Assembly (NCBI GenBank): GCA_045535305.1
Contig: JAZSLJ010000007.1
Location: 5,440-69,439, forward strand
DNA: 64,000 bases
Reading direction: 5' to 3'
Source: Acutalibacteraceae bacterium
Lineage (GTDB): Bacteria; Bacillota; Clostridia; Oscillospirales; Acutalibacteraceae
The notes under the pieces were generated by a model, which was not told the origin of the DNA, made no database searches, and worked only from the letters and a program-made list of their open reading frames with translations. This document shows positions 28,291 to 55,539 of this stretch, in pieces. Every line of letters begins with the position of its first letter. The stretch's first letter is position 1. Position numbers and translations under genes: made by a program.

Positions 28291-28356
28291 CTGACCACCC
28301 CCTTACGAGGGTGTGGATTCAACCGCCTACCGTTTAAGGTAGCACCTTACAACAGG

Positions 28357-35674: not shown

Positions 35675-35680
35675 AAAAAT

Positions 35681-35775: not shown

Positions 35776-35845
35776 TGCTGTTTATAGCAAGTATGTAGCC
35801 TGTTGCAAAGACAAATACAAGAATAATTGCCGCAAAATACTCCAT
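35765..35845 (-). CDS. type I toxin, small hydrophobic KKK-tailed peptide (26 aa)
   Basis: MEYFAAIILVFVFATGYILAINSKKK. The AAGGGGGTG SD is buried in a CACCCTC-AAAA-GGGGGTG hairpin. The track's 63-aa version starts upstream of the mapped promoter. Confidence 0.6.
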   Translation of the reverse strand: MEYFAAIILVFVFATGYILAINSKKK

Positions 35846-35911
35846 AGCATACACCCCCTTTTGAGGGTGTGGATTCAACCGCCTACCGTAAAGATAACAC
35901 CTTACGCTGAC

Positions 35912-39709: not shown

Positions 39710-40977
39710 TAATTTTCACCTGCTTTTAATGCTTTTGCGCCGATATCGTGGCGGTAAAATGCGTTGCCGAAATGCACCTTTTCTACTGCCTTGTATGATT
39801 TATCAATAGCTTCTTTAAGTGTTGCAGCTGTGGCTGTTACGCCCAATACTCTGCCGCCGTTTGTAAGAAGTTTGCCGTTTTCTGCCTTTGCACCTGCTAC
39901 AAAAACCTCACCGTCAATATCTGCATCAACTGTGATTTCATAGCCTTTTTCGTATTTAACGGGATAACCCTCAGATGCCATAATTACACAGCAGGCATTT
40001 TCTGACTTGAATTTAACATCAATTTCAGAAAGCTTTTCATCTGCAACAGCTTCCATAATTGTGTAAAGGTCAGTATCAAGCAAAGGAAGAACAACCTGTG
40101 TTTCGGGGTCGCCGAAACGGCAGTTATACTCAATAACCTTTGTGCCGTTGGGAGTTATCATAAGACCGAAGTAAAGACAGCCCTTGAAGGTTCTGCCTTC
40201 GGCATTCATAGCGTTCATTGTGGGAATGAAGATTTTTTCCATACATTCTGCAGCAACAGCATTTGTATAGTAGGGGTTGGGAGCAACTGTACCCATACCG
40301 CCTGTATTAAGACCTTCGTCATTATCCTTTGCGCGCTTGTGGTCCATTGATGAAACCATGGGAACAACTGTTTTTCCGTCTGTGAATGAAAGCACGGAAA
40401 CCTCAGGGCCTGTAAGGAATTCTTCAATAACGATATTGCTTCCGCTTTCACCAAAAACCTTATCTTCCATCATTTCCTTAACTGCTTTTTTAGCGTCTTC
40501 CCTTGTCTGTGCGATAATTACGCCTTTACCCAGTGCAAGACCGTCAGCCTTAATAACCGTGGGAACGGGAGCTGTATCAAGGTATTCGAGAGCCTTGTCA
40601 ATATCGGAAAATACCTCATATTCCGCTGTGGGAATACCGTATTTCTTCATAAGGTTCTTTGAAAATACCTTACTGCCCTCGATTATAGCCGCATTTTTAC
40701 TCGGACCGAAGCATTTGATGCCGATTTCGTTAAGAGCATCAACACAACCGAGTACAAGAGGGTCGTCGGGAGCAACAACAGCAAAATCAATGCTGTTATT
40801 CTTTGCAAAATCGACGATTCCCGCAATATCCGTTGCACCGATATTAACACACTGAGCATCTGCGGCAATTCCGCCGTTACCGGGGAGTGCATAAATCTTT
40901 TCGATAGATTTGTTTTCTTTTAACTTTTTTATAATGGCGTGTTCTCTGCCGCCGCCACCTACAACTAAAATCGTCAT
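39709..40977 (-). CDS. purD: phosphoribosylamine-glycine ligase
   Basis: MTILVVGGGGREHA.. with an ATP-grasp domain. Its stop overlaps the purL start (TAATG). Confidence 0.95.
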   Translation of the reverse strand: MTILVVGGGGREHAIIKKLKENKSIEKIYALPGNGGIAADAQCVNIGATDIAGIVDFAKNNSIDFAVVAPDDPLVLGCVDALNEIGIKCFGPSKNAAIIEGSKVFSKNLMKKYGIPTAEYEVFSDIDKALEYLDTAPVPTVIKADGLALGKGVIIAQTREDAKKAVKEMMEDKVFGESGSNIVIEEFLTGPEVSVLSFTDGKTVVPMVSSMDHKRAKDNDEGLNTGGMGTVAPNPYYTNAVAAECMEKIFIPTMNAMNAEGRTFKGCLYFGLMITPNGTKVIEYNCRFGDPETQVVLPLLDTDLYTIMEAVADEKLSEIDVKFKSENACCVIMASEGYPVKYEKGYEITVDADIDGEVFVAGAKAENGKLLTNGGRVLGVTATAATLKEAIDKSYKAVEKVHFGNAFYRHDIGAKALKAGEN

Positions 40978-41001
40978 ATATTTGTACCTTTCAATAACAA
41001 A

Positions 41002-42186
41002 TTAATGGTGGAAAAGTCTCATACCTGTAAAGCACATAGCGATGCCGTACTTGTTACAGGTTTCGATAACCTGATCATCTCTGATTGAACCGCCGGGCTC
41101 TGCGATATAAGAAACGCCGCTTCTTCTTGCTCTCTCGATGTTATCGCCGAAGGGGAAGAATGCATCTGAACCCAGTGCAACACCTGTGATAGAATCAAGA
41201 TAAGCTCTCTTTTCAGCCTTTGTGAACTCTGCGGGCTGCTCAGTAAAGTAAAGCTGCCAGTTACCGTCTGCAAGTACGTCCTCGCTGTCATCAGAAATGT
41301 AAACATCAATGCAGTTATCTCTGTCGGGTCTGCCGAGTTCGGGTTTAAAGGGAAGATTAAGCACCTTTTCGTGCTGACGGAGATGCCAGTTATCTGCCTT
41401 CTGACCTGCAAGTCTTGTACAATGGATTCTTGACTGCTGACCTGCACCTACGCCGATAGCCTGTCCCTGATATGCGTAGCAAACAGAGTTTGACTGTGTA
41501 TATTTAAGAGTGATAAGAGAAATAATAAGGTCTCTCTTAGCTTCTTCGGGAATTTCTGTGTTCTCTGTAACAACCTTTGTAAGAAGCTCGCTGTCGATTT
41601 TAAAATTATTTCTGCCCTGTTCAAAGGTAATGCCGTAAACCTGCTTTACCTCCTGCTCCATAGGAACATAATCAGCATCAATTTTAACTATATTGTAGTT
41701 GCCCTTTCTCTTCTGTTTAAGAATTTCAAGTGCTTCAGGCTCATAACCGGGAGCGATAACACCGTCGGAAACCTCTCTCTTTATAAGAAGAGCTGTTGTA
41801 ACATCACATACGTCTGAAAGCGCAATCCAGTCGCCGAATGATGACATTCTGTCTGTTCCTCTTGCTCTTGCGTAAGCACATGCAAGGGGTGATTCGTCAA
41901 GACCTTCAATATCATCAACAAAGCAAGCCTTTTTGAGTGCATCGGAAAGAGGTGTGCCGACAGCAGCGGATGTGGGGCTTACGTGCTTGAAGGATGTTGC
42001 ACAAGGCATACCTGTTGCAGCCATAAGCTCCTTTACAAGCTGCCATGAGTTGAATGCATCAAGGAAATTGATATAACCGGGACGTCCGCAGAGAATTTCT
42101 ATGGGAAGCTCGCTGCCGTCGCTCATATATATTTTTGCAGGCTTCTGGTTGGGGTTACAGCCATATTTAAGTTCAAATTCTTTCAC
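41002..42186 (-). CDS. purH: AICAR formyltransferase (PurH transformylase domain only)
   Basis: 394 aa matching the AICARFT half of PurH (LKYGCNPNQ..; ..FTGMRLFHH C-terminus). It lacks the MGS-like cyclohydrolase domain. Confidence 0.85.
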   Translation of the reverse strand: MKEFELKYGCNPNQKPAKIYMSDGSELPIEILCGRPGYINFLDAFNSWQLVKELMAATGMPCATSFKHVSPTSAAVGTPLSDALKKACFVDDIEGLDESPLACAYARARGTDRMSSFGDWIALSDVCDVTTALLIKREVSDGVIAPGYEPEALEILKQKRKGNYNIVKIDADYVPMEQEVKQVYGITFEQGRNNFKIDSELLTKVVTENTEIPEEAKRDLIISLITLKYTQSNSVCYAYQGQAIGVGAGQQSRIHCTRLAGQKADNWHLRQHEKVLNLPFKPELGRPDRDNCIDVYISDDSEDVLADGNWQLYFTEQPAEFTKAEKRAYLDSITGVALGSDAFFPFGDNIERARRSGVSYIAEPGGSIRDDQVIETCNKYGIAMCFTGMRLFHH

Positions 42187-42201
42187 AATAATACCCTCCG
42201 A

Positions 42202-42918
42202 TTATTTGTTTTTATTAACGATTCTTGTTTCTGTTTCGCCGGAATCAATATCAATATATCTTACGAAAAGTGAAACCTTGTTATCTTCATTGAGATTTGT
42301 CCAGATAAGGTCTGTAAGCTCATCAATGCTTACGTCGGGCAATTCAAGAGTTTTGGGTTCACCCTCAAATGAAGGAAGAGGATTGCCGTCGCAGTTGTAA
42401 GTGTGAATAAACTTAGCTCTGCCGCAGATAGGATTGGAATATGCATATGTAAATCTCTCGCAGGATGAATCATCACCCTCTGCGCTCTTGAGAATTGACA
42501 TCGCAAAGTTCATACCGTCATTTTCGCGGCGGATAATACCGGAAATTCGGGGAGTGAAATTGGGCTTGTCGTCCTCAAACTCTCTTGTGCGAAGAGCCTG
42601 TTCAAATGTCATCTGCTTATCCATAAGCTCGTAGATTGTGTCTGTCTGGTCGCCGTTTGTAACGATTGTTTTATTGCCCAATACTCTGACGGGATAATAG
42701 ATGATAAGATGAGGATCGGTCATTTTTGACTCGTCAAATGCCTTTGTACGCATAGCCTCACCCTCAGCTACAAATACGCGGTTACGGCTGTTTTCGCTTC
42801 TGCCCATAATGAAATATGCGGTTACAGCCTTTTTGCCGTCTGCGCTTTTGCCTATAATAATACCTCTGCCGTGATAAGCAAGAGAATTAAGTTCATTAGC
42901 AATAGTAGAAACTTTCAT
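42202..42918 (-). CDS. purO: IMP cyclohydrolase, PurO (archaeal) type
   Basis: YHGRGIIIGKS..AYFIMGRSENSRNRVF signature of the PurO family. Confidence 0.8.
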   Translation of the reverse strand: MKVSTIANELNSLAYHGRGIIIGKSADGKKAVTAYFIMGRSENSRNRVFVAEGEAMRTKAFDESKMTDPHLIIYYPVRVLGNKTIVTNGDQTDTIYELMDKQMTFEQALRTREFEDDKPNFTPRISGIIRRENDGMNFAMSILKSAEGDDSSCERFTYAYSNPICGRAKFIHTYNCDGNPLPSFEGEPKTLELPDVSIDELTDLIWTNLNEDNKVSLFVRYIDIDSGETETRIVNKNK

Positions 42919-42919
42919 A

Positions 42920-43555
42920 TCAGTTCTCCTTAATATATACTTTGTTATCTTTAACTTCTAATTTGTCCTCGCAGAAAAGCTTTACAGCTTCGGGAAGAAT
43001 CTTCCACTCAACCTGCTCCATAATTCTTTTCTGGAGTGTTTCGGGGGTATCGTCCTGCATAACCTCAACTGCTTTTTGCAGAATAATGGGGCCTGCATCG
43101 CATTCGGGAGTTACGAAATGAACCGTTGCACCCGAAATCTTAACGCCTTTTTCAAGTGCGGCTTCGTGAACGTGGAGTCCGTAATAGCCTTTGCCGCAGA
43201 ATGAGGGAATCAATGCGGGATGAATATTGATAATCGCATTGGGATAAGCCTCATAAACCTGCTCGTCAATAATGGTAAGAAAGCCTGCAAGCACCACAAG
43301 GTCAATATCTGCATTTTTAAGCGTATCAACAAGTGCTTTTGAGTATGAAGCTATATCGGCATAGTCTTTTCTGCAAAGAACAACGGATTCAATACCGTTG
43401 TTTGCGGCTCTTTCAAGAGCATAAACACCGGGTTTTGACGCAACAACAAGAGTTATCTTACTGCCGCCGAACATACCGCTTTTCTGTGAATCAATAAGGC
43501 TTTGCAGATTTGTGCCGCCACCTGAAACAAGGACTGCAATTTTCTTATCAGACAA
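42920..43555 (-). CDS. purN: phosphoribosylglycinamide formyltransferase
   Basis: [29 protein letters not shown]....D.GPI. Confidence 0.9.
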
Positions 43556-44585
43556 TTACAACACCCTCTTCGGACTTGATAACCTCACCGATAACGTATG
43601 CATCCTCGCCGTTTGCCTTAAGCACTTCAATAGCCTTGTCAGCATCCTCTTTAGCAACGATAACGCTCATACCTACGCCCATATTATATGTGTTGAACAT
43701 ATCTCTTTCGGGAATGTTGCCTGTTTTTGCAATAAGGTCGAAAATGGGAAGAATTCTGATAGAAGACTTATCAATCTTTGCGCCGTAGCCTTCGGGAATT
43801 GTTCTGGGAATATTCTCATAGAAGCCGCCGCCTGTGATGTGTGATACACCCTTTACTTTAACTTCTTCAAAGAGTGCGAGCATAGGCTTAACATAAATCT
43901 TTGTGGGAGTGAGGAGTGTTTCACCTACTGACTTACCGCCAAGCTCCTCACGGGGAGTTTTTATGTCTGCATTTTCAACATCAAAAACCTTTCTTACAAG
44001 TGAAAAACCGTTTGAATGAACACCGCTTGAGGGAAGGGCAATAATAACGTCGCCCTCTGTGATTGATGATGTATCAACAATCTTGTCTTTATCAACAACA
44101 CCTACGGAGAAGCCTGCAAGGTCGTATTCGTCAACAGGATAGAAACCGGGCATTTCTGCTGTTTCACCGCCGATAAGAGATGCACCTGCCTGAACACAGC
44201 CCTCTGCAACACCTGCAACGATGTCTGCAATTCTTTCGGGAACGTTTTTGCCGCAAGCGATGTAATCAAGGAAAAGAAGGGGTTTTGCACCGCAGCAGAT
44301 AATATCGTTAACACACATTGCAACACAGTCAATACCTACTGTATCGTGCTTGTCCATAATAAATGCAAGTTTGAGCTTTGTGCCTACACCGTCTGTACCG
44401 CCAACGAGAACAGGCTTTGTTATACCTGTAAGATCAAGGCTGAACAGACCGCCGAAGCCGCCGATATCGGAAACCTCATTACCTGTCATTGTTCTTGCAA
44501 TGTGCTGTTTCATAAGCTCAACAGCTTTGTAGCCGGCAGTAATATCTACGCCTGCTTCTTTGTAACTTTCACTAAAACTTTTCAT
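43548..44585 (-). CDS. purM: phosphoribosylformylglycinamidine cyclo-ligase (AIR synthetase)
   Basis: [26 protein letters not shown].. Confidence 0.95.
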
Positions 44586-44668
44586 TATGTTTATCCTCCT
44601 GTAAGGAATTTTTTATTATTTAAAAATACGAAATGGGGCAAAGCGTACCTTGTCCCTGTTTCCGTAAA

Positions 44669-45163
44669 TTATGCATTATATTTTTCTTCGATTGCTTTAT
44701 TTTTAGCAAGCACTTTTTCACTGCCTGCTTTTCTTGCATCATTGAGCTTGTCTGCAAGCTCTTTATCCTCAATAGCGAGCATCTGAATTGCAAGCAGAGC
44801 AGCATTAGCCGCACCGTTTACTGCAACGGTTGCAACGGGAATACCTGTAGGCATCATAACGGTTGAAAGAAGTGCATCCATACCGTCAAGATATTTAGCC
44901 GCAACGGGAATACCGATAACGGGCAGAGTTGTGTTTGCCGCAATCGCACCTGCAAGATGAGCAGCCATACCTGCGGCTGCAATTATTGCGCCGAAGCCGT
45001 TTGTTCTTGCGTTTTCGGAAAATTCCTTAGCTTCAACAGGTGTTCTGTGGGCTGAGTAAACATGAACCTCAAAGGGAACGCCGTACTCCTTAAGAGTGTC
45101 AATAGCTTTTTCAACAACGGGCAAATCGCTGTCGCTGCCCATAATAATTGCAACTTTTTTCAT
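44669..45163 (-). CDS. purE: 5-(carboxyamino)imidazole ribonucleotide mutase
   Basis: [13 protein letters not shown]...SAHRTP...[12 protein letters not shown]. Confidence 0.95.
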
Positions 45164-45193: not shown

Positions 45194-45300
45194 TAAAAAA
45201 AGGCAGTCCTGTACTGTAAGGACTGCCCAGACGGTCGGCTTAAAATATTTCTGCTCCCTGCGGTCAATTCCGCTTATCCGTCAGTAACAGAAATCCACAG
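45194..45300 (-). promoter_or_regulatory. ZTP (pfl-motif) riboswitch with expression-platform terminator
   Basis: Minus-strand RNA reads ..ACUGACGG-AUAA-GCGG-AAUUGA-CCGC-AGGGAGC..(linker)..CCGACCGUCUGGGCA. CCGUC is complementary to GACGG (pseudoknot helix). CUGGGCAGUCC is shared with the terminator GGCAGUCC-UUACAGUACA-GGACUGCC plus U7 (45194-45227). Confidence 0.75.
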
Positions 45301-45333: not shown

Positions 45334-45385
45334 TATTTTATAAAATAAAATATATATATAAATAAAGAGCAATTTGGTTAGAATG

Positions 45386-46591
45386 TTACAAAAAATCCTT
45401 GCCGTTAAGATAACGCCATGCGGCTATATATTTTACTGCAGAAGAATGTGCCGGACTTTCAATATCAAAATAATGTTCATCGTCAATTATAACAACCGCA
45501 TCGGGTGATGATGTCCATACTCTTTTGACTTTGTGTATGGGCATTTCAACACTTTCAGTTTCATTGAGAACAACAACAAATTTATCATTAAAAAGCTTTA
45601 ATGCGGCATTTTCGGAAAGGAGTGTTTTACTGTCTTTCTGAACGGACAGAACTTTCATACCCGATTCTTCAAAGATAACTTCTCCGTTTTCGGCAGAAAG
45701 CACCTTTTCTTTCCATACATTCTTTTGCCATTTATCCCATGAGAGAACATTATCAAAAACAACGTTTTTCTCATTATGGAAGAATGCATCTTTTCCGTAT
45801 TCAACCGAATAACCGCATTGTGCACATTCAAACATATCGCCCTTGCTGTGAAGATGACCTACGGTTTTACATTCGGGACAGACGTAAAGTATACGCTCCA
45901 GATATTCAGCCATATTTTCACCCGTATAAATTGCGGGATTATGACGCTGATATTCAAAAGCATTAACATAAGTGTCTCTGCGGATGATTTCATTCACCTC
46001 ATCAACAGTCATTTTTGCAATTTCTTCAGGCGGATATTCGTGCACCACCCCGCATCTGAGAGTGCCTTTTTTCTTTTTTTCAGACCACCTTGCAGTAAGA
46101 AGATAGCCGTTATCAAAACGGAATGTAATAAGTGCAACACCCGAATCCTTAACCATTTTACCTGTATTTTCGGAAATAAAGCCCGTTTCTCCGTTGAAGC
46201 TTGTGTTGCCCTCTGCAAATATTGCAACGGGCACACCTGACCTTAATGAGCCGAGAATATCATTTACAAGCACTTCGGGGGCTTTATCCCTGCGTTTTAC
46301 GATTATTCCGCACAAAGCTTTTAAAACAAATCCAAGAAAGCCCATTCTTGCAACGTGATCACTTGCAACAAAGCGTACATATCTGTTTTTTAAAGCAAAT
46401 ACTATGTATGCAGGGTCAATAGAGCTTGTGTGATTGGCTATAAGTATAAAATTCTTATGCTTGGGAGTGTAGTAATTTGGCTTAAAATCAAGGATTTTGC
46501 GTGCGGGAAGATGCAAAATCAATGCAAGTGTTTCAATAAGTATTTTATTAAAAATATAACCTTTTCGCATATTTTTACCGTTCCGCTTCAT
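45386..46591 (-). CDS. PlsC-type acyltransferase with C-terminal zinc-ribbon domain (paralog of 4596..5798)
   Basis: NHTSSIDP, FAEGNTS and CPECK..CAQCG motifs. It is collinear with the other copy over the full length. The ATG at 46591 is 7 nt after an AGGAGA SD. Confidence 0.8.
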   Translation of the reverse strand: MKRNGKNMRKGYIFNKILIETLALILHLPARKILDFKPNYYTPKHKNFILIANHTSSIDPAYIVFALKNRYVRFVASDHVARMGFLGFVLKALCGIIVKRRDKAPEVLVNDILGSLRSGVPVAIFAEGNTSFNGETGFISENTGKMVKDSGVALITFRFDNGYLLTARWSEKKKKGTLRCGVVHEYPPEEIAKMTVDEVNEIIRRDTYVNAFEYQRHNPAIYTGENMAEYLERILYVCPECKTVGHLHSKGDMFECAQCGYSVEYGKDAFFHNEKNVVFDNVLSWDKWQKNVWKEKVLSAENGEVIFEESGMKVLSVQKDSKTLLSENAALKLFNDKFVVVLNETESVEMPIHKVKRVWTSSPDAVVIIDDEHYFDIESPAHSSAVKYIAAWRYLNGKDFL

Positions 46592-46736
46592 ATACACTCT
46601 CCTTTCGTAACAAGCATATCGTTTAAATTATACAATAGAATTAAGCATTTATCAACAGAAAAATCCGGACATTTTACAATAATTTGCCCGGATTTTATAA
46701 TTTATAATTTTAATGAATCACAAAAGTTTTATTTAA

Positions 46737-47819
46737 TTATTTTTTATTTGTATCAAGAAAACCGTTCTGCTGCATAAATGTCATCATACCCACCATTGTA
46801 ATATCGTTCGTACGACCCTTAACGGTACACATACCTGCAGGAATATCATAAGAAAGCACTTTGATATATGCAATATCGTTATTCATATTACCTTCTGCAT
46901 CCTTTGTGCAAAGAGCTTTGATGTTATCGTTTTTATCTGCAAAGAAGCAAAGTGCTGTTCCATTCTCGGAAATAAAGCTGTATACTGTATATTCAACGCC
47001 GCCGAGAGTTTCTTTACCTGAAGTTATTTCTTTATAATCTTCTTTTTTGCCGAAATTATAGTTTGCAAGCATATTTGATGTATCAAAGCCGTCGGCAATT
47101 TCGGAATCAGCATCAAACTTGTAATAATATTTTGTTGTGCCGAAAAGTCCTTTTACATCGTATTTAAGGTAAATATCACCCTTGTTTATATAAACAGCCA
47201 TTTCCATACCGTCAATAGAAGCTACAAACTCAACGTCTTCACCGTTTGCAGCAATTCCGCCTGTTGCACCGTCGCCCTCAAGCTCCATATAGTAATGATT
47301 CTCAAACAAGCCGTCGATTGCCTTGGGATAAGAAACTTTATTGCCCTGAGTTGTAGTTTCGGGTGCCTGAGTTGTAGTCTCAGGAGCTTCTGTTGTAGTC
47401 TCGGGAGCTTCTGTTGTAGTCTCGGGAGCTTCTGTTGTAGTCTCAGGAGCTTCTGTTGTAGTCTCGGGTGCTTCTGTTGTGGTCTCGGGAGCTTCTGTTG
47501 TAGTTTCTTCCTCAATCACGATATTGGGGTCGTCAAACTGTTCAAGAGCCGCAGAAACTCTCAATATAGTACGTGCATCACCTGCAAGAATATCTCCGCT
47601 TTCGTCAACGTCAGCGGCAATAAGTGCATCACCCTCAAGCACTTCCAATGTTGCGGCAGCTCTTAATGCAAGACGGGCATCATCTGCCGTAATCTTACCG
47701 TCCCCGTTTACGTCGCCGCGCATTATTGTTTTTGCGCTTACATTAACCAATGTACAGCATACAAGCATTACTGCTGAAATGATTAAACATAACGCTCTTT
47801 TAGAATTCAAATGTTTCAT
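46737..47819 (-). CDS. secreted dockerin-containing protein with TTEAPET linker repeats and an unknown C-terminal domain
   Basis: Signal peptide, then duplicated dockerin Ca-loops (GDVNGDGKITADDARLALR and DVDESGDILAGDARTILR), then 8 x ETTT(E/Q)AP. Confidence 0.75.
   Translation of the reverse strand: MKHLNSKRALCLIISAVMLVCCTLVNVSAKTIMRGDVNGDGKITADDARLALRAAATLEVLEGDALIAADVDESGDILAGDARTILRVSAALEQFDDPNIVIEEETTTEAPETTTEAPETTTEAPETTTEAPETTTEAPETTTEAPETTTQAPETTTQGNKVSYPKAIDGLFENHYYMELEGDGATGGIAANGEDVEFVASIDGMEMAVYINKGDIYLKYDVKGLFGTTKYYYKFDADSEIADGFDTSNMLANYNFGKKEDYKEITSGKETLGGVEYTVYSFISENGTALCFFADKNDNIKALCTKDAEGNMNNDIAYIKVLSYDIPAGMCTVKGRTNDITMVGMMTFMQQNGFLDTNKK
47345..47512. repeat. 8 tandem 21-bp repeats (coding, ETTTEAP linker)
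   Basis: CTTCTGTTGTAGTCTCGGGAG-like unit repeated head to tail with few substitutions. It also generates spurious ORFs in other frames. Confidence 0.9.
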
Positions 47820-47922
47820 AAAAAAATACCTCACTTTTAATATGTATATCAATAATTATACATAAATCCAACCGATATTGCAACATATATTAACATTTTA
47901 TTTCAGGAATATTAAGGATTTT

Positions 47923-47951
47923 ATTGAAAATTCTGCAATTTGATAATATAA
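47923..47951 (+). promoter_or_regulatory. promoter of the sugar-phosphate isomerase gene
   Basis: TTGAAA-17 nt-TATAAT. Confidence 0.55.
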
Positions 47952-47971
47952 TAATTCCGGAGGTGAAAATT

Positions 47972-48805
47972 ATGGACAAAAGAATGTGCATAAATCTGAT
48001 TGAATCAACAATTCCGTTTATTGAACAGCTCCCTATTATAAAAAATGCAGGATTTGACGGCATTTTTTTGGATTGGGAAAGAAATATTGACTTACAGCCG
48101 ATTATAAACAAAGCAAGAGAGCTTGGGCTGTATGTGCAGTCGCTCCACGCACCTTTTTACGGAATGGACGATATATTTCACGATGATAAGGGCAGTCTTG
48201 CAGACAAAATGATAAACGACCTTATGGGGTCAATAGATTCCTGTGCCGAATTCGGTATCGAGCTGGTTATTTTTCATGCTGTTATCGGCATGGACAATCA
48301 CTCCCCCAACGAAAAAGGACTTGAAAGAATTAAAAAAGTTATTGAACACGCCGCTGAAAAGAATGTTCGTATTGCATTTGAAAACACAGAGGGTGAAGAA
48401 TATCTCAAAGCAATTCTTGACCGCTACGGCGACAGAGAACATATAGGTTTTTGCTATGATTCGGGACACGCAATGTGTTACAACTCCGGAAGTGATATAT
48501 TAGGCAAATTCGGCAAGTATCTTTTTTCAACGCATCTCAACGACAATATGGGACAGACCGAAGACGAAATAACATTCCACGATGATAACCATATGCTCCC
48601 CTTTGACGGAATTGGAGATTGGGAGAAAATTGCAAAACAGCTTAAAGAAAATAATTTCCAAGGTCCGTTTACATTTGAGCTTGTCAAAGGCAACCGCCCC
48701 AACAGAAACACAAACGACAGATATGTTGAAATGACCTTTGAAGAATATATCAAAGAGGCATACGAGAGAGCCGATAAGTTCAGGGAGATTTATGATAAAC
48801 AATAA
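47972..48805 (+). CDS. sugar phosphate isomerase/epimerase (xylose-isomerase-like TIM barrel)
   Basis: The general pattern (..FHA...AFEN.EGE...D.GH..) is typical of the AP-endonuclease-2/xylose-isomerase-like fold. The ATG at 47972 follows a GGAGGTG SD. Confidence 0.7.
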   Translation: MDKRMCINLIESTIPFIEQLPIIKNAGFDGIFLDWERNIDLQPIINKARELGLYVQSLHAPFYGMDDIFHDDKGSLADKMINDLMGSIDSCAEFGIELVIFHAVIGMDNHSPNEKGLERIKKVIEHAAEKNVRIAFENTEGEEYLKAILDRYGDREHIGFCYDSGHAMCYNSGSDILGKFGKYLFSTHLNDNMGQTEDEITFHDDNHMLPFDGIGDWEKIAKQLKENNFQGPFTFELVKGNRPNRNTNDRYVEMTFEEYIKEAYERADKFREIYDKQ

Positions 48806-48950
48806 TTCATCGGCTGATGCCGATAAAAATTAGTAATTAGTAATTAGCAATGAGTAATGGTGGAAAGGGCGTTGCCCTTTAACCCAATTTATATAATTTA
48901 AGCCCGTAGTGCTTCCTTAATTGCTCATTGCTCCCTGCTCATTGCTCATT
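48796..48950 (-). mobile_element. heptamer-arm TIR element, copy B (variant arms)
   Basis: TIR TAAACAATAATT (48796-48807). (T/G)AG(T/C)AAT x4 (48831-48858) faces ATTGCTC x4 (48920-48947). Core GGAAAGGGCGTTGCCCTTTAACCCAATTT (48862-48890) matches copies A and C. Confidence 0.6.
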
Positions 48951-48951
48951 A

Positions 48952-48991
48952 AACAATAACCGCACCGAGTAAATCGGTGCGGATTATTGTT
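48952..48991. terminator. long palindromic bidirectional terminator (CCGCACCGA hairpin, variant copy)
   Basis: AACAATAA-CCGCACCGA-GTAAA-TCGGTGCGG-ATTATTGT. It lies between the convergent isomerase and eutH genes. Confidence 0.7.
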
Positions 48992-50066
48992 ATTTTACTG
49001 ATTTTTCTGCTCTCTTATACATAAAATTCGCAGCCACAAGAGCGGCAATTCCGCCAACGAGCTTTCCTGCTATCATTGCGGGCAGATATTCCTTATCAAA
49101 TGCCATTGTAAAAGCAAGGTGATCCCCGAAAACAAAAGATGCTGATACCGTGAATGCCATATTCATCATTCTGCCTTTTTCGTTCATTTTGGCTGCAAGG
49201 TCGAAGGTGGGGATGCTGTTTGCAAGTGATGAAACAAGTCCGAGCACGCTGTTTTCATCAATATTGATTTTGTTGCCGATTACCGTAAAGGGCTTTCTGC
49301 AGATCTTTGAGATAAACGCTATAAAGGGAAAAACGCCCGCAAGAATAACGGCAATACCTGCAACTGTTGCGAATCCGTCCTCAACAGGTGTCATACCGGG
49401 TATAAGAGTTATGTCTGTTATATACTCAAATATACCTGCTGCAAGACCGACTGTGATTATTATTATAACAATTTTGCCGATAATACCGAATATTTTGCGG
49501 CACAGATCAGGCTTGACGGCAAGACCGATACAGGTAATCAATGCTACAAACAGAACGGGTATAAGATTAAGCATAAGCGTGCCGAAGGATATGCCAAGCA
49601 TAAGACCTGACACAATACAGCCCACGGGCATTGTAGCTATACCGCAAAGAATACCGTTAAGCACCTCTCTGTGATATTTTTCGTCAATAGTTTTGAGTGC
49701 AACGGGCACTGTAAAGCATATTGTACAGCCCATCATAGATGCCACAACAAGTCCGTTGAAGCTGCCTATTACATCGTCGGATGCCAGCACCTGCGAAATT
49801 GCAGCACCGCCCATATCGTTTGCTATAAAGCTGCCGATAAAGGACATATCTATATGCGTAAGGCTGCACATCGGCTCCAATACGGGAGTAAGCACCTGTG
49901 CAAGTGTGGGTGCAATACATATCATACCGACCATAGCAAGGGACAATGAGCCGCACGCCAGAATACCCTTTTCGAACTCCTCACCCAATTTAAGGTGATT
50001 GCCCGTTATGCGGTCAACGGCACCGATAACAGCAAAAACTGCAAATATCATTTCAAGAACTGCCAT
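48990..50066 (-). CDS. eutH: EutH-family ethanolamine permease-like membrane protein
   Basis: MAVLEMIFAVFAVIGAVDRITGN..GEEFEKG.. is an EutH-like N-terminus. The start was trimmed by 82 codons to the ATG at 50064-50066 behind a GGAG SD. Confidence 0.75.
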   Translation of the reverse strand: MAVLEMIFAVFAVIGAVDRITGNHLKLGEEFEKGILACGSLSLAMVGMICIAPTLAQVLTPVLEPMCSLTHIDMSFIGSFIANDMGGAAISQVLASDDVIGSFNGLVVASMMGCTICFTVPVALKTIDEKYHREVLNGILCGIATMPVGCIVSGLMLGISFGTLMLNLIPVLFVALITCIGLAVKPDLCRKIFGIIGKIVIIIITVGLAAGIFEYITDITLIPGMTPVEDGFATVAGIAVILAGVFPFIAFISKICRKPFTVIGNKINIDENSVLGLVSSLANSIPTFDLAAKMNEKGRMMNMAFTVSASFVFGDHLAFTMAFDKEYLPAMIAGKLVGGIAALVAANFMYKRAEKSVK

Positions 50067-50096
50067 AAAATTTCTCCGAATAATTTTTTCCGATGT

Positions 50097-50125
50097 AGTA
50101 TAACATAAAAAATAAATTAAATCAA
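50097..50125 (-). promoter_or_regulatory. eutH promoter
   Basis: TTGATT-17 nt-TATACT on the minus strand. Confidence 0.5.
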
Positions 50126-50247
50126 TAAATAAGTAGTTTATACAAAAAATAAACCGTACAAATTTATATGATTTCGCAAAAAGGTTATTGCAATTCCGTA
50201 GGGAATGCCCATTGGGCATTCCGTGCCGATTTTGAAATATAGCCACA

Positions 50248-50274
50248 TAAAAAACGGACCGCCAATGGCGGTCC
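50248..50274 (-). terminator. rho-independent terminator
   Basis: GGACCGCC-ATT-GGCGGTCC followed by GTTTTTT on the minus strand. Confidence 0.7.
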
Positions 50275-50320
50275 CTACTATATAAATTCAATTTTCTGCA
50301 AAGATAAAACAAACCGCACC

Positions 50321-50351
50321 GATTACTCGGTGCGGGATTTTGAGCGCACTC
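50321..50351 (+). repeat. 31-bp direct repeat, left copy (CCGCACCGA-TTAC-TCGGTGCGG hairpin)
   Basis: AAACCGCACCGATTACTCGGTGCGGGATTTT is identical to 50998-51028. Confidence 0.9.
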
Positions 50352-50407
50352 TGAATTTTCATAATCAAGATTACATAAACTACAATAAAGATTATCCGTA
50401 TTTTTAA

Positions 50408-50605
50408 TTAATCAAGATAATTCCAATATTTCCCGTTTCCGTAAAGATCATCTTCATCATAATGACCATTGCCATTATCATCATAGTACCCATCCTGATT
50501 ATAACTGTTTCCATTACTGTCTGTATACCATGTTGATTCACTTCCACAACTTCCTAAAATCGAAAAAAACACAACTAATGCAATAAATATAATTATACCT
50601 TTCAT
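50408..50605 (-). CDS. 65-aa putative lipoprotein with a D/N/G/Y-rich mature peptide
   Basis: GGAGGTG SD. MKGIIIFIALVVFFSILGSC has a lipobox-like LGSC, followed by GSESTWYTDSNGNSYNQDGYYDDNGNGHYDEDDLYGNGKYWNYLD. Confidence 0.5.
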   Translation of the reverse strand: MKGIIIFIALVVFFSILGSCGSESTWYTDSNGNSYNQDGYYDDNGNGHYDEDDLYGNGKYWNYLD

Positions 50606-50792
50606 AAACTTCACCTCCTTATTTCCTGAATGTTTTTTCAACAAACGGATAATAATTAAAAACAACAGTCAACTCAGCTCAAGCTTGACAGTTACACAAA
50701 AACCAAGTACTTTTGAATAATATTATACACCACTTTTGGTGTAAATGTCAATACACTAAATGTGGTGTATTATAATTTTATTGGTGATAATT

Positions 50793-50999
50793 ATGAAAGA
50801 ATATCCTGAAATAATACGGGAGCTTCGTGAAGATAATGATTTGAATCAAAGTGATGTTGCCGAAATTCTCGGTACTACTCAACAAGTATATTCACGCTAT
50901 GAAAAAGGAATAAATGAAATACCCGTAAGGCACATCATCACTCTTTGCAAATTTTACAAAGTAAGTGCCGATTATATCTTAGGACTTAAACAACAATAA
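50793..50999 (+). CDS. XRE-family HTH regulator (small)
   Basis: IIRELREDNDLNQSDVAEILGTTQQVYSRYEKG. It is divergent from the lipoprotein gene. TACACC..GGTGTA palindromes lie in the shared 5' region. Confidence 0.8.
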   Translation: MKEYPEIIRELREDNDLNQSDVAEILGTTQQVYSRYEKGINEIPVRHIITLCKFYKVSADYILGLKQQ

Positions 51000-51028
51000 A
51001 CCGCACCGATTACTCGGTGCGGGATTTT
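50998..51028 (+). repeat. 31-bp direct repeat, right copy (also the XRE terminator)
   Basis: Identical to 50321-50351 and followed by a T-run. Confidence 0.9.
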
Positions 51029-51382
51029 TTATTTATTGTTTTTTGCTGTTTTACAGGAAGCGACAAGTGCGGCTTTTATTCTTGAACATAAATTCTCTAA
51101 TTGTTTATATTGTTGTTCATCAATATATTTTGTTCTGTATAATATCAGCAACCAATACGATGTTTCGTTTGCCTCTTTAAGTGCAATTTCAAATTTTGCA
51201 ATAAAATCAGCCTTACTGTGAGCATATTGTGCCTCGTGAATATTTGCACCGATGCTTGTTCCGCTGCGACAAATCTGATTTGCAATTACAGATTACTGTT
51301 TCGATTTCAATATTTTTACCAATTCAACAATTTTCACTGAAAAATCTATTGATAAATCTACAAGCAAATTGCTTTCTTTTAT
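51029..51382 (-). pseudogene. four-helix-bundle protein (23S rRNA intervening-sequence protein / Avd-like family), disrupted
   Basis: Hand translation gives (ATA)KESNLLVDLSIDFSVKIVELVKILKSKQ-TAA-SVIANQICRSGTSIGANIHEAQYAHSKADFIAKFEIALKEANETSYWLLILYRTKYIDEQQY.. ATA sits where ATG is expected behind a GGAG SD, and there is an in-frame TAA at 51293-51295. Confidence 0.6.
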
Positions 51383-51400
51383 ACCGCTAACTCCTATAAA

Positions 51401-51590
51401 GATGATAGTTTAATCTTTGATTAAAATGATAGTGCAACAAGTTGCAATGATGGATTGAATGTAAACATTCAAAATGATGGGATGGTTGCAATCATTTGTC
51501 GAAGACAACCATCATTTGCGTAAGCAACTATCATAAACAAAGTGTCATCATTTGCCGAAGGCAACCATCATTTTGATTAAAAAATAATGA
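51401..51590. repeat. array of eight ATGAT(G/A)G boxes (4 forward, 4 reverse) alternating with small palindromes
   Basis: Forward boxes lie near 51401, 51425, 51447 and 51473. Reverse C(C/T)ATCAT boxes lie near 51510, 51528, 51546 and 51566. The interleaved hairpins are TGCAAC-AA-GTTGCA, TTGAATGT-AAA-CATTCAA, TTGTC-GAA-GACAA, TTGC-GTAA-GCAA and TTGCC-GAA-GGCAA. Confidence 0.7.
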
Positions 51591-51591
51591 A

Positions 51592-53109
51592 TTATTTTTT
51601 AATCAAAGACTCGCCTGTCATTTCTTTGGGCTGTGCAAGTCCCATCATATCAAGGAGTGTGGGGCAAAGGTCGCAGAGTCTGCCGCCGTCCTTAAGAGGA
51701 GCTGTCTGTCCGATTGTAACAACGGGTACGGGATTTGTTGAGTGAGGTGTAAATGCCTCGCCGTTTTCATCAATCATCTTATCAGCGTTACCGTGGTCAG
51801 CTGTGATAATCATTTTACCGTCCATTTTTGCAACTGCATCTGCGAGTCTGCCAACGCACTCGTCAACAGCTTCTACTGCTGCAACAGCTGCATCAAAAAT
51901 ACCTGTATGGCCAACCATATCGCAGTTTGCGTAGTTGATGATGATAACATCATACTTGCCGCTGAGAACCTGCTCAACAACTGCATCTGTTACCTCATAT
52001 GCACTCATTTCGGGCTTCAAATCAAATGTTGCAACGTCGGGAGAATTAATAAGAATTCTGTCCTCACCGGGGAACTGAGCTTCAACACCGCCGTTAAAGA
52101 AGAATGTTACGTGAGCATACTTCTGTGTTTCTGCAATACGGAGCTGTGTAAGACCGAGTGATGAAACGTATTCACCCATTGTCATAGTAAGGTCTTCGTT
52201 AGCAAATGCAACTGTTACATTAGGCATTGTTGCATCGTACTGTGTCATACAAACATAGTTAAGGGGGAAGAAGCCATTTCTTCTCTCAAAACCGTTGAAA
52301 TCGGGGTCAACGAACATTCTTGTAAGCTGTCTTGCTCTGTCGGGACGGAAATTGAAGCAGATAACGGAGTCATTCTCCTTAATCATACCCTCTTTATCAA
52401 TAACAACGGGAACAACAAACTCGTCTGTTACGCCGTTTGCGTAGGATTCTGCCATAGCCTTTACAGGGCAGTCGCACTGATTGCCTTCGCCGTAAACCAT
52501 AGCTGCATAAGCCTTTTCTTCTCTGTCCCATGCAAAATCTCTGTCCATAGCGTAGTATCTGCCGGAGATTGTTGCAATTTTACCGAGACCTGTTGCACTG
52601 AATTTATCAAGGCAATCCTGCATAAAGCCTTTACCTGATTCAACGGAAACATCACGGCCGTCTGTGATAGCGTGAACATAAACCTTGTCAAGACCCTTTG
52701 CCTTAGCCATATCAATAAGACCGAAAAGGTGCTCAATGTGGCTGTGAACACCGCCGTCGGAAAGAAGACCAACAAGGTGAAGTGCTGTTCCCTTTGCTTT
52801 ACAAGCATCCATAGCATCGGAAAGAGCTTTTACGTTTGCAAGCTCGCCGTCCTTGATTGTTTTTGAAATTTTAACGAGCATCTGGTAAACAACACGACCT
52901 GCGCCGATGTTTGTATGACCAACCTCAGAGTTACCCATCTGACCGTCGGGAAGACCTACGTCAAGACCTGATGCACCGATGAGTGTGTGAGGATTTTCTG
53001 CAAAAATTTTATCAAGGCAGGGAGTTTTTGCAAATTCAATTGCATTTCCCTTTGCTCCGGGATTTGAGCCGAAGCCGTCCATTATACAAAGAACATATGG
53101 TTTTTTCAT
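51592..53109 (-). CDS. gpmI: 2,3-bisphosphoglycerate-independent phosphoglycerate mutase
   Basis: ILDGFG-like MDGFG.., SEVGHTNIGAGR and ADHGNAD motifs. Confidence 0.95.
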   Translation of the reverse strand: MKKPYVLCIMDGFGSNPGAKGNAIEFAKTPCLDKIFAENPHTLIGASGLDVGLPDGQMGNSEVGHTNIGAGRVVYQMLVKISKTIKDGELANVKALSDAMDACKAKGTALHLVGLLSDGGVHSHIEHLFGLIDMAKAKGLDKVYVHAITDGRDVSVESGKGFMQDCLDKFSATGLGKIATISGRYYAMDRDFAWDREEKAYAAMVYGEGNQCDCPVKAMAESYANGVTDEFVVPVVIDKEGMIKENDSVICFNFRPDRARQLTRMFVDPDFNGFERRNGFFPLNYVCMTQYDATMPNVTVAFANEDLTMTMGEYVSSLGLTQLRIAETQKYAHVTFFFNGGVEAQFPGEDRILINSPDVATFDLKPEMSAYEVTDAVVEQVLSGKYDVIIINYANCDMVGHTGIFDAAVAAVEAVDECVGRLADAVAKMDGKMIITADHGNADKMIDENGEAFTPHSTNPVPVVTIGQTAPLKDGGRLCDLCPTLLDMMGLAQPKEMTGESLIKK

Positions 53110-53163
53110 AATTATATCATTCCTTTAAAAATCGGGCAGGTATTTCTCCTGCCCTAAATATTA

Positions 53164-53931
53164 TTATTTTGAAGCAGCTTTTACGATAATTGAGAAATCT
53201 GCAGCTTTAAGAGATGCGCCGCCGATAAGACCGCCGTCAACATCCTCCTGTGCAAGAAGCTCATCAGCATTAGCAGCGTTCATTGAACCGCCGTACTGAA
53301 CAACCATTTTATCAGCAGCAGCCTTGCCGTAAAGCTCTGCTACACACTCTCTGATAGCGTGGTTAACTTCGTTTGCCTGTTCAGCAGTAGCTGTTACACC
53401 TGTGCCGATTGCCCATACAGGCTCGTATGCGATGATGATGTTTGCAAGCTCTGCTTCGGAAACACCGCCAAGAGCAATCTTTGTCTGCATACGTACGATT
53501 TCTTCTGTAATGCCCTGATTTCTCTGTTCAAGGTATTCACCAACACAAAGAATTACGGTAAGACCTGCATCAAGAGCAGCTCTTGTTCTCTTCTGAACTG
53601 TTACGTCTGTTTCACCGAAATACTGTCTTCTCTCTGAATGACCGATGATAACGTAAGGAACGCCGATTTCTTTGAGCATTTTTGCAGAAACTTCACCTGT
53701 GAAAGCACCGCTTTCTGCCCAATGGCAGTTTTCAACACCGATTTTGATGTTTGAGCCCTCTGCTGCTTCCATAGCTGCAAATACGTCAATATAAGGAACG
53801 CAAAGAACAACATCACAATCTGCACCTGCTACGAGAGGCTTCATTTCTTCAATAATAGCCTTTGTTTCAGCAGGAGTTTTATTCATTTTCCAGTTACCTG
53901 CGATAACTGCTTTACGAAGAGCTTTATTCAT
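53164..53931 (-). CDS. tpiA: triose-phosphate isomerase
   Basis: AGNWKMN.., IGHSERR and AYEPVWAIGTG motifs. The start was set at MNKALRK. Confidence 0.95.
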   Translation of the reverse strand: MNKALRKAVIAGNWKMNKTPAETKAIIEEMKPLVAGADCDVVLCVPYIDVFAAMEAAEGSNIKIGVENCHWAESGAFTGEVSAKMLKEIGVPYVIIGHSERRQYFGETDVTVQKRTRAALDAGLTVILCVGEYLEQRNQGITEEIVRMQTKIALGGVSEAELANIIIAYEPVWAIGTGVTATAEQANEVNHAIRECVAELYGKAAADKMVVQYGGSMNAANADELLAQEDVDGGLIGGASLKAADFSIIVKAASK

Positions 53932-54002
53932 TTGAATATATCCTTTCAATATGTAGTGAAGAACGATTGCTCATTCTTCACCTACTTTAGTTTTATTTAA
54001 AA

Positions 54003-55205
54003 TTACTTGTTGTCGATGCAAGCGATACCGGGAAGATCTTTACCCTCAAGGAATTCGAGAGAGGCGCCGCCGCCTGTTGAAACGTGAGTCATCTTGTCGT
54101 TGAAGCCGAGCTTCTTAACAGCTGCTGCTGAGTCGCCGCCGCCGATGATTGAAACTGCGCCTGCATCTGTTGCAGCTGCAACAGCGTTAGCAACTGAAAT
54201 TGTACCTGATGCAAACTTTTCCCACTCAGAAACACCCATAGGTCCGTTCCAGATAACTGTGCCAGCACCCTGGAGTGCTTCAGCAAAGAGTTCTTCTGAC
54301 TTAGGACCGATGTCAAGACCCATCCAACCGTCGGGAATCTTGTCGCTGTCTACGATTTCACATTCTGTATCGGGCTTGTATTCTGTACCAATTCTGTTAT
54401 CAATGGGAATAAGGAACTTAACGCCCTTTTCTTCAGCAAGCTTCATCATGCTCTTGGCAAGCTCAATCTTATCTTCTTCACAGATTGATGTACCAACTGA
54501 ATGGCCCTGTGCTGCGAAGAATGTGTAAGCCATACCGCCGCCTACGATAAGAGTATCAACCTTTTCCATAAGGTTTTCGATAACGCCGATTTTGTCAGAA
54601 ACCTTTGCACCGCCGAGGATAGCAACGAAGGGTCTTGCAGGATCTTCAAGAGCCTTACCCATAACGTCAACTTCCTTCTGCATAAGGTAGCCGATAGCTG
54701 ACTCCTCAACAAAAGCTGCTACACCTGCTGTTGAAGAATGTGCTCTGTGAGCTGAACCGAAAGCATCGTTTACAAAAATATCTGCAAGAGCAGCAAACTT
54801 TTTGCTGAGCTCTTCATCGTTCTTTGTTTCGCCCTTTTCAAAACGTACGTTTTCAAGGAGCATAGCTTCGCCGTCTTTGAGTTCTGCAGCGAGAGCCTGT
54901 GCAGACTCGCCTACTACGTCCTTTGCAAGCTTAACCTCGATACCGAGATACTTTGAAAGACATTCTGCAACGGGTGCCATTGAGAATTCGGGGTTGAATT
55001 CACCCTTAGGTCTGCCAAGGTGAGAGCAAAGGATAACTTTTGCATTGTTATCAAGCAAATACTTGATTGTGGGAAGAGAAGCAACTACTCTCTTATCGCT
55101 TGTGATAACGCCGTTTTCCATTTTAACGTTGAAATCACAACGTACAAGCACTTTCTTGCCTGCAACATTTAAATTTTCAATAGTTTTCTTGTTTAAAACG
55201 CTCAT
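54003..55205 (-). CDS. pgk: phosphoglycerate kinase
   Basis: VRCDFNV.., SHLGRPKG and GGGDS..A motifs. Confidence 0.95.
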
Positions 55206-55402
55206 TGTAAAATCTCCTTATATAAAGAATTTTTATAACTAAACTGACACAATATATTTTATTATATTGTGAAAAATTTATCAAGTGGCAATTCCGCCAA
55301 ATCATTAAATGCGGTAAGCACAATTATTTGTATATATAATATACCCAAATTAATGCATTATAGGCACAGTATAACAATTTTTATAGCAAAATGCAATATT
55401 AA

Positions 55403-55539
55403 TAAACAAGAATTTATCTAATTAACAATGTACAATGTATAATGTACAATGAAGGAAAGGGCTTCGCCCTTTAACCCGATTTTTATAATTCAATAATTGT
55501 ACATTGTAAATTGTACATTGTACATTAAATTATTGTTTA
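55403..55539 (-). mobile_element. heptamer-arm TIR element, copy C (inverted, near-identical to copy A)
   Basis: The reverse complement aligns with 30324-30460 over all 137 nt with about 10-12 differences by hand alignment. One TIR is intact and the other has one substitution (TAAACAAGAATTT). Confidence 0.7.

Follow-up and report, generated by a model that had tools for sequence, protein, structure and literature searches.

A probable MITE/REPIN-like superfamily of modular foldback repeats with co-varying heptad arms in uncultured Acutalibacteraceae-like Clostridia

To our knowledge, work on small palindromic repeats (REP, BOX, Correia, ERIC and the like) has been confined almost entirely to cultured Proteobacteria plus a few pathogens. 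Among the systems closest to the element treated here, REPIN hairpins frequently carry compensatory changes on both sides (PMC3116915), and a transposable element of the miniature inverted-repeat kind (MITE) with internal tandem repeats has been described in P. gingivalis under the name 'BrickBuilt' (PMC4596501). The present analysis concerns a palindromic element, copy B (positions 48796-48991), in a stretch of 64,000 nucleotides (nt) from an Acutalibacteraceae bacterium (GenBank assembly GCA_045535305.1, contig JAZSLJ010000007.1, positions 5,440 to 69,439; hereafter the window), which also holds two related copies, A and C. Copy B is probably a subfamily member of a large superfamily of modular, MITE/REPIN-like foldback repeats that act in practice as portable gene-end modules. 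The superfamily, apparently undescribed so far, resides in the intergenic DNA of uncultured, mostly ruminant-gut Acutalibacteraceae-like Clostridia.

A collection with one genome per species was scanned with the core pattern, which gave at least 69 loci (numbered here with the prefix L), many of them with the core match at a contig end. Among the matches listed, all but one GC-rich chance match (L012) came from about ten metagenome-assembled genomes (MAGs) of Clostridia/Eubacteriales/Acutalibacteraceae, mostly from the ruminant gut, and about 30 of the loci listed belonged to a single MAG, RGIG4183, which is 82-90% identical to the window across syntenic stretches. Copies were slightly more alike within a genome (~0.90) than between genomes (0.85-0.89). 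The order of the modules was taken from an alignment of 74 core copies: the left half begins with the terminal repeat (R)TAAACAATAATTT, which may be followed by a small GC hairpin (ATCGGC/GCCGAT, GTCGAGG/CCTCGAC and ATAGGC/GCCTAT are among those used) or a whole hairpin made of terminal repeat, loop and terminal repeat, and continues with the left heptad array and the core, while the right half consists of an AT-rich spacer, in some copies a second hairpin with TTCC behind it, which mirrors GGAA and the core, the right heptad array and again the terminal repeat. The terminal inverted repeat (TIR) measures 13-14 nt and each arm has 3-5 heptads. Complete elements (n = 42, TIR AAACAATAATTT/AAATTATTGTTT with at most one mismatch) are 113-273 nt long, and no credible open reading frame (ORF) was found within them. 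They resemble MITEs in being short, non-coding, bounded by TIRs and dispersed in many copies, with an occupancy that differs between species at 70-90% identity. Many elements whose cores and arms are different have this terminal repeat at their ends as well, among them arm-less ones with different structured inserts and bare TIR-loop-TIR minis, and in some copies the terminal TIR-loop-TIR hairpins bring the number of TIRs to three.

A further TIR-bounded module consists of two similar hairpins, GGAACGATG-CCCA-CATCGTTCC ... GGACCGATC-AGGG-GATCGGTCC, with GTAGGG/CCCTAC around them. Some instances stand by themselves between TIRs and others are nested in heptad-arm elements (L008:6310-6400, L008:5376-5574, L009:4567, L014:5481 and L010:~1-80) and had no Rfam match.

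The initial annotation of copy B had read the differences between its heptads and those of A and C as a sign that pairing of the arms is selected or that the arms are copied from each other. Read toward the core, the heptads of both arms follow A (99%) A (90%) T (97%) K N N Y; the variable 3-4 nt set the subfamilies apart, both arms of one element are almost always of the same type, and positions 5 and 6, which define this type, co-vary between the arms. At least nine heptad types occur with matching arms (GTAC, GAGC/TAGC, TCGC, TAGG, GGAGTGA, AATTGAA, AATTCAT/AATGCAT, AAAGAAT and AAATAAT), and in TIR-bounded elements with other cores the arms are again complementary (GGAGTGA/TCACTCC, AATTGAA/TTCAATT, AATGCAT/ATGCATT, AAAGAAT/ATTCTTT, AATTAGG/CCTAATT). 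The loci and the window contain 185 period-7 arrays, and the consensus units of 53 of the 75 neighbouring pairs are reverse complements within 1 nt. When only distinct left/right consensus combinations are counted, this is true of 20 out of 42, whereas 10,000 permutations averaged 6.2 and never exceeded 15.

A base-level test used 46 distinct core-containing copies and landmarks independent of pairing, namely the core for the left arm and the first ATT-phased heptad for the right arm. Overall, 77.9% of the arm cells pair, and changes on both sides occur in 18 of 25 arm pairs. Double-change cells numbered 171, as against 90.7 ± 11.4 in shuffles (0 of 500 reached the observed value), and the covariation score was 0.273 compared with 0.155 after shuffling and 0.04-0.13 in slid controls. 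Inside the B subfamily variation is low, and so is covariation (double changes in 4 of 43 pairs). The larger set of copies, examined for independent change of the arms, thus shows joint change, and the reading offered in the initial annotation is both supported and generalised, with data that fit selection on pairing as well as arm-to-arm copying. Joint variation of left and right is nearly always seen; it is absent at heptad position 4 (see below) and broken by three chimeras with mismatched arms, namely L024b (GAGT on the left) and L040 (GAGAAGT type on the left), both with GTAC on the right, and L067a (GTAC on the left, GCTC on the right), which from their sequences read as recombinants with breakpoints around the core. 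Arm complementarity is clearly maintained, yet other constraints act too.

Direct reading confirmed each feature that had been listed for copy B. The parts of B, the two further copies of the loop hairpin at its right end, and copies A and C, which belong to the subfamily with GTAC heptads, are the following (array limits from TRF):

48796-48808, + strand: left TIR of B, T+AAACAATAATTC (repeat proper 48797-48808)
48809-48824, + strand: small GC hairpin of B, ATCGGC-TGAT-GCCGAT
48828-48861, + strand: left arm of B, AATTAGT AATTAGT AATTAGC AATGAGT and a partial AATGGT (TRF 48828-48858, period 7, 4.4 copies)
48862-48885, + strand: core of B, GGAAAGGGC-GTT-GCCCTTTAACCC, with a 7-bp stem at 48864-48880
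48886-48899, + strand: AT-rich spacer of B, AATTTATATAATTT
48900-48919, + strand: second hairpin of B, AAGCCC-GTA-GTGCTT (48900-48914), then CCTTA
48920-48950, + strand: right arm of B, ATTGCTC ATTGCTC CCTGCTC ATTGCTC ATT (TRF, period 7, 4.4 copies)
48951-48991: terminal TIR-loop-TIR hairpin of B, AAACAATAA-CCGCACCGA-GTAAA-TCGGTGCGG-ATTATTGTT
50314-50335: the CCGCACCGA hairpin for the second time, resembling a terminator on the - strand
50988-51043: third CCGCACCGA hairpin unit (hairpin 51001-51022) with TIR-like flanks AAACAACAATAA and TTTATTGTTT, a mini TIR-hairpin-TIR
30325-30459, - strand: copy A, core 30386-30409 (-), TRF arrays 30337-30365 and 30413-30438
55404-55538, + strand: copy C, core 55454-55477 (+), TRF arrays 55425-55451 and 55496-55526

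The left repeat of B, AAACAATAATTC, has one mismatch to AAACAATAATTT; B does carry the same TIR, as proposed. The small hairpin at 48809-48824, likewise listed in the initial annotation, is separated from the left arm by AAAA, and its module recurs with other loops (GAAA, GGAT, TTT, GGAA) in 11 of the 14 B-subfamily copies. The 24-nt core of B equals GGAAAGGGCGTTGCCCTTTAACCC (48862-48885), and the core stem is invariant in all 14 copies of the subfamily. That B, A and C share this core is borne out by the pattern with a free loop, whose 21 specified bases match three times in the window where 0.00 matches are expected. An alignment of B with C covers 74 nt (73% identity) and one with A covers 68 nt (74%), A and C being mutually inverted (139 nt, 91% complementary). 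The second hairpin differs by one mismatch from the subfamily consensus AAGCCCGTAGGGCTT and mirrors GGAA and the core of the opposite side. In other genomes, 13 further copies have exactly the layout of B, with a mean column identity of 81%. That B is an unrelated low-complexity region sharing the GC hairpin by chance, for which its AT-rich, repetitive composition is the only argument, is refuted by the core count, the alignments with A and C and these 13 copies.

The left arm of B does differ from the others by having TAGT/TAGC/GAGT-type heptads, with GCTC on the right; of the four ATTGCTC units announced for the right arm three are exact and the remaining one reads CCTGCTC. The central change, TA to AG on the left and TA to CT on the right, is present in all four units of each arm as described; the rest of the heptad is only partly compensated, and over the 28 positions 20 Watson-Crick pairs were counted besides 3 G.T, 1 A.C and 4 other mismatches. 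Folding on both strands was far stronger than in shuffles, with -71.7 kcal/mol (z -8.2) for RNA of the + strand, -66.9 (z -7.1) for RNA of the - strand and -43.9 (z -8.7) for DNA.

The far end of B had been described as a fused second palindrome with a hairpin that recurs nearby. The composite is real, but TIR-loop-TIR is a regular module at the right end of the B subfamily, in which the loop differs from copy to copy (AGCAGAACACT, TGCTCCGCT, ATAGGCTCNCGCCTAT); what is particular to B is that its loop is the local CCGCACCGA hairpin. This hairpin does recur, with three matches in the window against 0 expected, all inside 2.1 kb, and had no occurrence in the 70 loci. All three copies are terminator-like, a call that rests here and below on a consensus scan only (GC stem-loop with an adjoining U-rich tract) and does not imply function.

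B lies between two convergent genes, one for an AP_endonuc_2/xylose-isomerase-like TIM-barrel protein (47972-48805) and one EutH-like (48990-50312, -), and contributes to the end of the first. The last two codons and the stop of ORF 47972-48805, AAA CAA TAA, come from the left TIR (stop at 48803-48805), and on the other side the terminal hairpin adjoins the stop codon 48990-48992 of the eutH-like ORF. The terminal hairpin resembles an intrinsic terminator on both strands (9-bp stem with 7 GC pairs, tails ATTATTGTTA / TTATTGTTTA), and the left TIR together with the small hairpin forms another such site for - strand transcripts (48827-48806); the heptad arms themselves are not terminator-like in the same scan. 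The third unit, at 50988-51043, similarly ends the HTH_3 ORF 50793-50999 with 'KQQ*'.

Across the family, elements are strictly intergenic and have no orientation bias, the flanking genes being oriented (-,-) in 20 cases, (+,+) in 14, convergently in 15 and divergently in 6, and 77 of the 127 flanking gene ends are 3' ends. The terminal repeat carries TAA in two frames on either strand. Among 150 ends formed by terminal repeats, a converging reading stretch that stays open for 100 codons or more points at 99, and in 51 the repeat supplies the stop codon, either as the flanking T plus its first AA (31 ends) or as an internal TAA, giving 'KQ*' (20 ends). Where AAATTATTGTTTA comes after a terminal small hairpin, the scan reports a terminator-like site that faces outward. 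At one gene end the same junction of TIR and stop codon is retained in L018 and L048, whose proteins are 62% identical. The flanking bases are T before the left TIR (36 of 42 elements) and A behind the right one (35 of 42), R standing at -2 and Y at +2, a pattern that fits a TA duplication (RTAY target) and a 14-nt TIR equally. Duplication of TA at TAA/TAG stop codons was considered and is not supported, as the base after the right TA is mostly T or C and not the expected A or G.

Orthologous sites were compared between species only, at 70-90% identity. L034 has a B-type element where the window is empty (7576-7626), and a full element in L004 corresponds to a core-less GTAC arm pair in L015. 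L060 and L025 have the identical junction …AGAGAGGR|TAAACAATAATTT, in which the TIR supplies the stop, and entirely different cargo: one of them has AATTCAT/AATGCAT arms around another core, the other a B-type element that is inverted. Behind the same gene, L066 and L068 carry different subtypes in opposite orientation, and copy C of the window is inverted as a whole at the orthologous site of L037 (RGIG4183). Exactly beside copy C, L037 lacks 9 kb that the window has at 46577-55495 (with genes for a dockerin protein, a TIM-barrel protein, EutH, an HTH_3 protein, iPGM, TIM and PGK), and in RGIG4183 the two flanks are adjacent. Such turnover, inversion and exchange of modules is the behaviour of mobile or recombining repeats. 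Two species also have, at orthologous positions (L015:553-616, L004:6187-6212), heptad arm pairs that lack GC core and TIR and lie directly 5' of a ribosome-binding site, which shows that the arrays can persist independently of the core.

These comparisons bear directly on the idea that the elements are terminators or insulators evolved by the host, which diversify in place and are homogenised by gene conversion without any transposition. Terminator-like terminal hairpins, the share of 3' ends among the flanking gene ends, the retention of a TIR at the stop in L018 versus L048 and in L060 versus L025, and the lack of a transposase among the window ORFs all agree with it. We nonetheless give it a slight probability, in view of the presence/absence differences between related species, the copies that lie 5' of genes and adjoin ribosome-binding sites (L037, L024a, L004/L015), the AT-rich arms that are not terminator-like, copy A, which sits upstream of a separate canonical terminator, and the fact that species with no more than 70-75% identity in their coding DNA have the 24-nt cores and the TIRs in identical form.

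We infer that the elements are selfish palindromes, for which joint change of the arms would be expected, and not a new kind of gene. On the MITE/REPIN-like reading, propagation or retention would need a single strand folded back on itself, either single-stranded DNA during mobilisation or replication or RNA as part of a transcribed 3' untranslated region (UTR). This need, together with slippage of the arrays and gene conversion from arm to arm or from copy to copy, would keep the arms alike, and a change of heptad type would hence look 'compensated' in the opposite arm. Recombination between copies at the common core and TIR would yield mosaics and rare chimeras. From the point of view of the host, the element would be a portable module of stop codon and terminator, since its hairpins and U-rich TIR resemble outward-facing intrinsic terminators; in the case of B it may act as a bidirectional terminator between two convergent genes.

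Weighing against this reading are observations on the heptads, on strand asymmetry, on stop-codon frames and on mobilisation, which are taken here with the rival explanations that they touch. Heptad position 4 (G/T) has the same polarity on both arms and matches between left and right in 80 of 156 comparisons, which is chance level, so that every second heptad has a T.C or G.A mismatch, pairing is not the sole constraint and perfect pairing of the arms may even be avoided. Moreover, the left half of the GTAC subfamily is near-invariant in sequence and length, in contrast to a right arm of anything from 1 to 5 heptads. Both observations suggest a sequence-level constraint beyond pairing. The ribbon-helix-helix omega repressor polymerises on (A/T)ATCAC(A/T) heptads, and the arrays might by analogy be duplex binding sites for small polymerising DNA-binding proteins, with arms that match for the sake of convergent binding. 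The strict 7-bp period, the invariant AAT, the type-specific triplet, the common polarity toward the core, the G/T kept at position 4 of each arm without covariation, as a constraint on sequence rather than on pairing would have it, and the near-invariant left arm of the GTAC subfamily are all in line with such sites. This explanation appears improbable, as at least nine heptad types, several per genome, would each need matching proteins, no candidate protein was found beside the elements, the right arm tolerates 1-5 heptads, and the small hairpins, core and TIR stems also vary by compensatory change, which duplex binding leaves unexplained.

As for strand, 29 of 33 complete copies had a lower RNA minimum free energy on the core strand than on the reverse complement (mean difference 4.0 kcal/mol, in copies that are related by descent and hence not independent samples), and G.T mismatches were in modest excess over A.C mismatches (109 vs 63), both of which hint at a strand-specific RNA. 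The elements would then be a structured RNA family, be it a small RNA or a cis-acting element of 3' or 5' UTRs, expressed from the core-sense strand with the arms as stem and the core and second hairpin as apex. Heptad position 7 (C/T) is T-richer in the left arm, with 41 G.U-type against 8 A.C-type mismatches; the arms of the L008 group, in which the excess is strongest, pair only via G.U on the core strand (6 vs 1); the B subfamily has conserved U.G pairs, some small hairpins have GNRA-type loops (GAAA, GGAA) on the core strand, and the left arm of the GTAC subfamily contains a promoter-like site, TTAACA-17-TACAAT. We still regard an RNA family as unlikely: position 2 shows the reverse asymmetry (17 A.C vs 7 G.T), position 4 is mismatched in half of the heptads, orientation shows no preference (20 vs 14), one orthologous site holds the element inverted, no Rfam match appeared even at E ≤ 10, the copies behind the energies share descent, and the promoter-like site is limited to one heptad type, which also led us to reject a promoter as the general function. 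Hence a strand-specific RNA gene does not give the best account, and transcription within neighbouring mRNAs is likely, because copy A lies 5' of the typA terminator and several copies adjoin ribosome-binding sites.

The third frame accounts for only 3 ends, and the resulting frames of 31:20:3 are not equal, a bias that random insertion fails to explain. This bias, the exchange of cargo at identical TIR/stop junctions, the inversion of a whole element at an orthologous site and the conserved but non-covarying G/T at position 4 would also suit a programmable, mobile system of gene-end cassettes, in which the terminal stem of 12-14 bp is the recognition or recombination site of an enzyme and the heptad triplet is an address for a protein or RNA partner. 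The cargo of heptad arms and core would be inserted, inverted and exchanged at fixed stop-codon junctions, and the variable triplet, with about 8 repeats per element, would be read by a matching partner; we consider such a system rather unlikely. Finally, no transposase or recombinase was present among the approximately 40 ORFs of the window in a Pfam scan, which gave no Y1_Tnp match either; the loci, some 560 kb in all, contain neither an ORF enclosed by a TIR pair nor any multicopy ORF. MAG assemblies usually lose multicopy insertion sequences (IS). The loci compared contain no clean empty site at nucleotide resolution, and the T...A flanks are ambiguous as to target-site duplication.

The surroundings of the three copies are those of an ordinary chromosome, with a purine operon behind a ZTP riboswitch, pgk-tpi-pgm, typA and a class II aminoacyl-tRNA synthetase, in addition to glycoside hydrolases, ABC and MFS transporters and a dockerin protein. 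Copy A is placed between the stop of typA/bipA (28503-30326) and the canonical typA terminator (30487-30511), so that it is probably transcribed; the TAA stop of typA is made of the flanking T and the first AA of its TIR. The right TIR of copy C gives 'KQ*' to a glycosyltransferase ORF (55530-57713, -). Independently of the elements, the ZMP/ZTP riboswitch (45218-45298, -; 59.1 bits, gathering threshold 39) lies upstream of the purE...purL operon (36017-45163), and the dockerin ORF (46737-47852, -) has a 21-nt unit repeated 7.4 times (90% matches) at 47350-47504, which corresponds to a linker repeat of seven residues. The acyltransferase genes at ORFs 4596-5798 and 45386-46597 (PF01553 in either case) are paralogues with DNA stretches of 70-81% identity (4592-4943 vs 45382-45739). 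Two copies of a probable type I toxin-antitoxin-like module, at 28095-28345 and 35669-35905, have a 55-nt stretch in common at 87% identity; each has a predicted + strand promoter and a predicted RNA of ~100 nt ending in a terminator, and convergent to it a small hydrophobic ORF on the - strand behind GGGGGTG (MQFVTYESLFAFTMIIISIIGLLVSIYQHKKK and MEYFAAIILVFVFATGYILAINSKKK). The sole Rfam match of these modules, BsrG, was weak (20.5 bits vs gathering 55, E = 0.006).

Database searches returned no described counterpart of the element. Scanning the window with Rfam 15 at gathering level gave only the ZTP riboswitch, located elsewhere, and at E ≤ 10 nothing relevant was found for B (best match ncr1575, 25.9 bits vs gathering 60, E = 0.096) and nothing at all for the L008 variant. 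Viral contigs had 0 matches to the core pattern, and blastn of C against plasmids and of B against phages gave only a 28-nt chance match or none. An exact-protein look-up of three flanking genes, aimed at near-identical strains with empty sites, found none on record, a metagenome scan with the protein upstream of B retrieved only a 29%-identical relative and no orthologous site, and the literature, searched by TIR and core sequence as well as for MITEs with heptamers in Clostridia, yielded nothing relevant. Integron attC sites were rejected, as the termini read TAAACAATAATTT/AAATTATTGTTTA where attC core sites read RYYYAAC...GTTRRRY, the copies lie ~20 kb apart among housekeeping genes and there is no integrase in the window. 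CRISPR, invertible promoters (invertons), dif/Xer sites and coding micro-ORFs were rejected on anatomy and context.

Taken as a MITE/REPIN-like superfamily, the elements add a rich and internally diverse repeat family from an uncultured, ecologically important gut lineage. A conserved scaffold with a swappable heptad type is unusually clean natural evidence that foldback structure, beyond sequence, is maintained, and the fusion of TIR and stop codon together with the terminator-like ends suggests that repeats shape the 3' ends of genes and the boundaries of operons. In practical terms, the elements break MAG assemblies, as seen from the many copies at contig ends, mark synteny breakpoints such as the 9-kb indel beside copy C, and could serve as markers for strain typing. 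If a dedicated enzyme or binding partner exists, they would offer a tractable model of structure-dependent mobilisation in Firmicutes.

None of the close precedents, be it REPIN, TA-flanked MITE, BOX or BrickBuilt, has paired inverted heptad arrays with interchangeable types, and each of them agrees with the elements in other respects. REPINs and REP-BIMEs (Proteobacteria, RAYT-associated) are likewise short, non-coding, extragenic and of high copy number, are built of inverted modules around a spacer that give a long hairpin in single-stranded DNA or mRNA, show the compensatory changes also found here, form mosaic higher-order arrangements and have a role at mRNA 3' ends. The elements differ from them in the Firmicute host, in the AT-rich tandem heptads that take the place of a GC-rich REP stem or palindrome (no GTAG-type motif lies beside the hairpins in either subfamily consensus), in a 13-14-nt TIR that is common to many subfamilies, and in that no RAYT (Y1 HUH) gene was seen in the window. 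With TA-flanked MITEs such as the Neisseria Correia element and the pneumococcal RUP, mobilised by IS630/Tc1-like elements, they share a length of 100-270 bp, perfect TIRs, T...A flanks, intergenic location in both orientations, presence/absence polymorphism and possible promoter or terminator activity; here, however, no cognate IS was found in the window or in the ~560 kb of loci, the T...A flanks can be read in two ways, some copies have three TIRs, and the internal architecture is conserved while its sequence changes, which would be unexpected if only the TIRs mattered. The pneumococcal BOX (boxA-boxB(n)-boxC) and BrickBuilt are also modular and intergenic, with a variable number of tandem units, pairable ends and reported effects on transcription, but their units are of 23 or 45 nt and not 7, and the two inverted arrays around a hairpin and the many co-varying types are particular to the elements described here. 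The arrays bound by the ribbon-helix-helix proteins omega (inc18 plasmid) and ParG likewise consist of contiguous 7-bp heptads, AT-rich with a short specific part, in direct and inverted orientation; each occupies one locus on a plasmid and has a single heptad type and a known binding protein, whereas the superfamily to which copy B probably belongs has dozens of chromosomal copies and at least nine heptad types.

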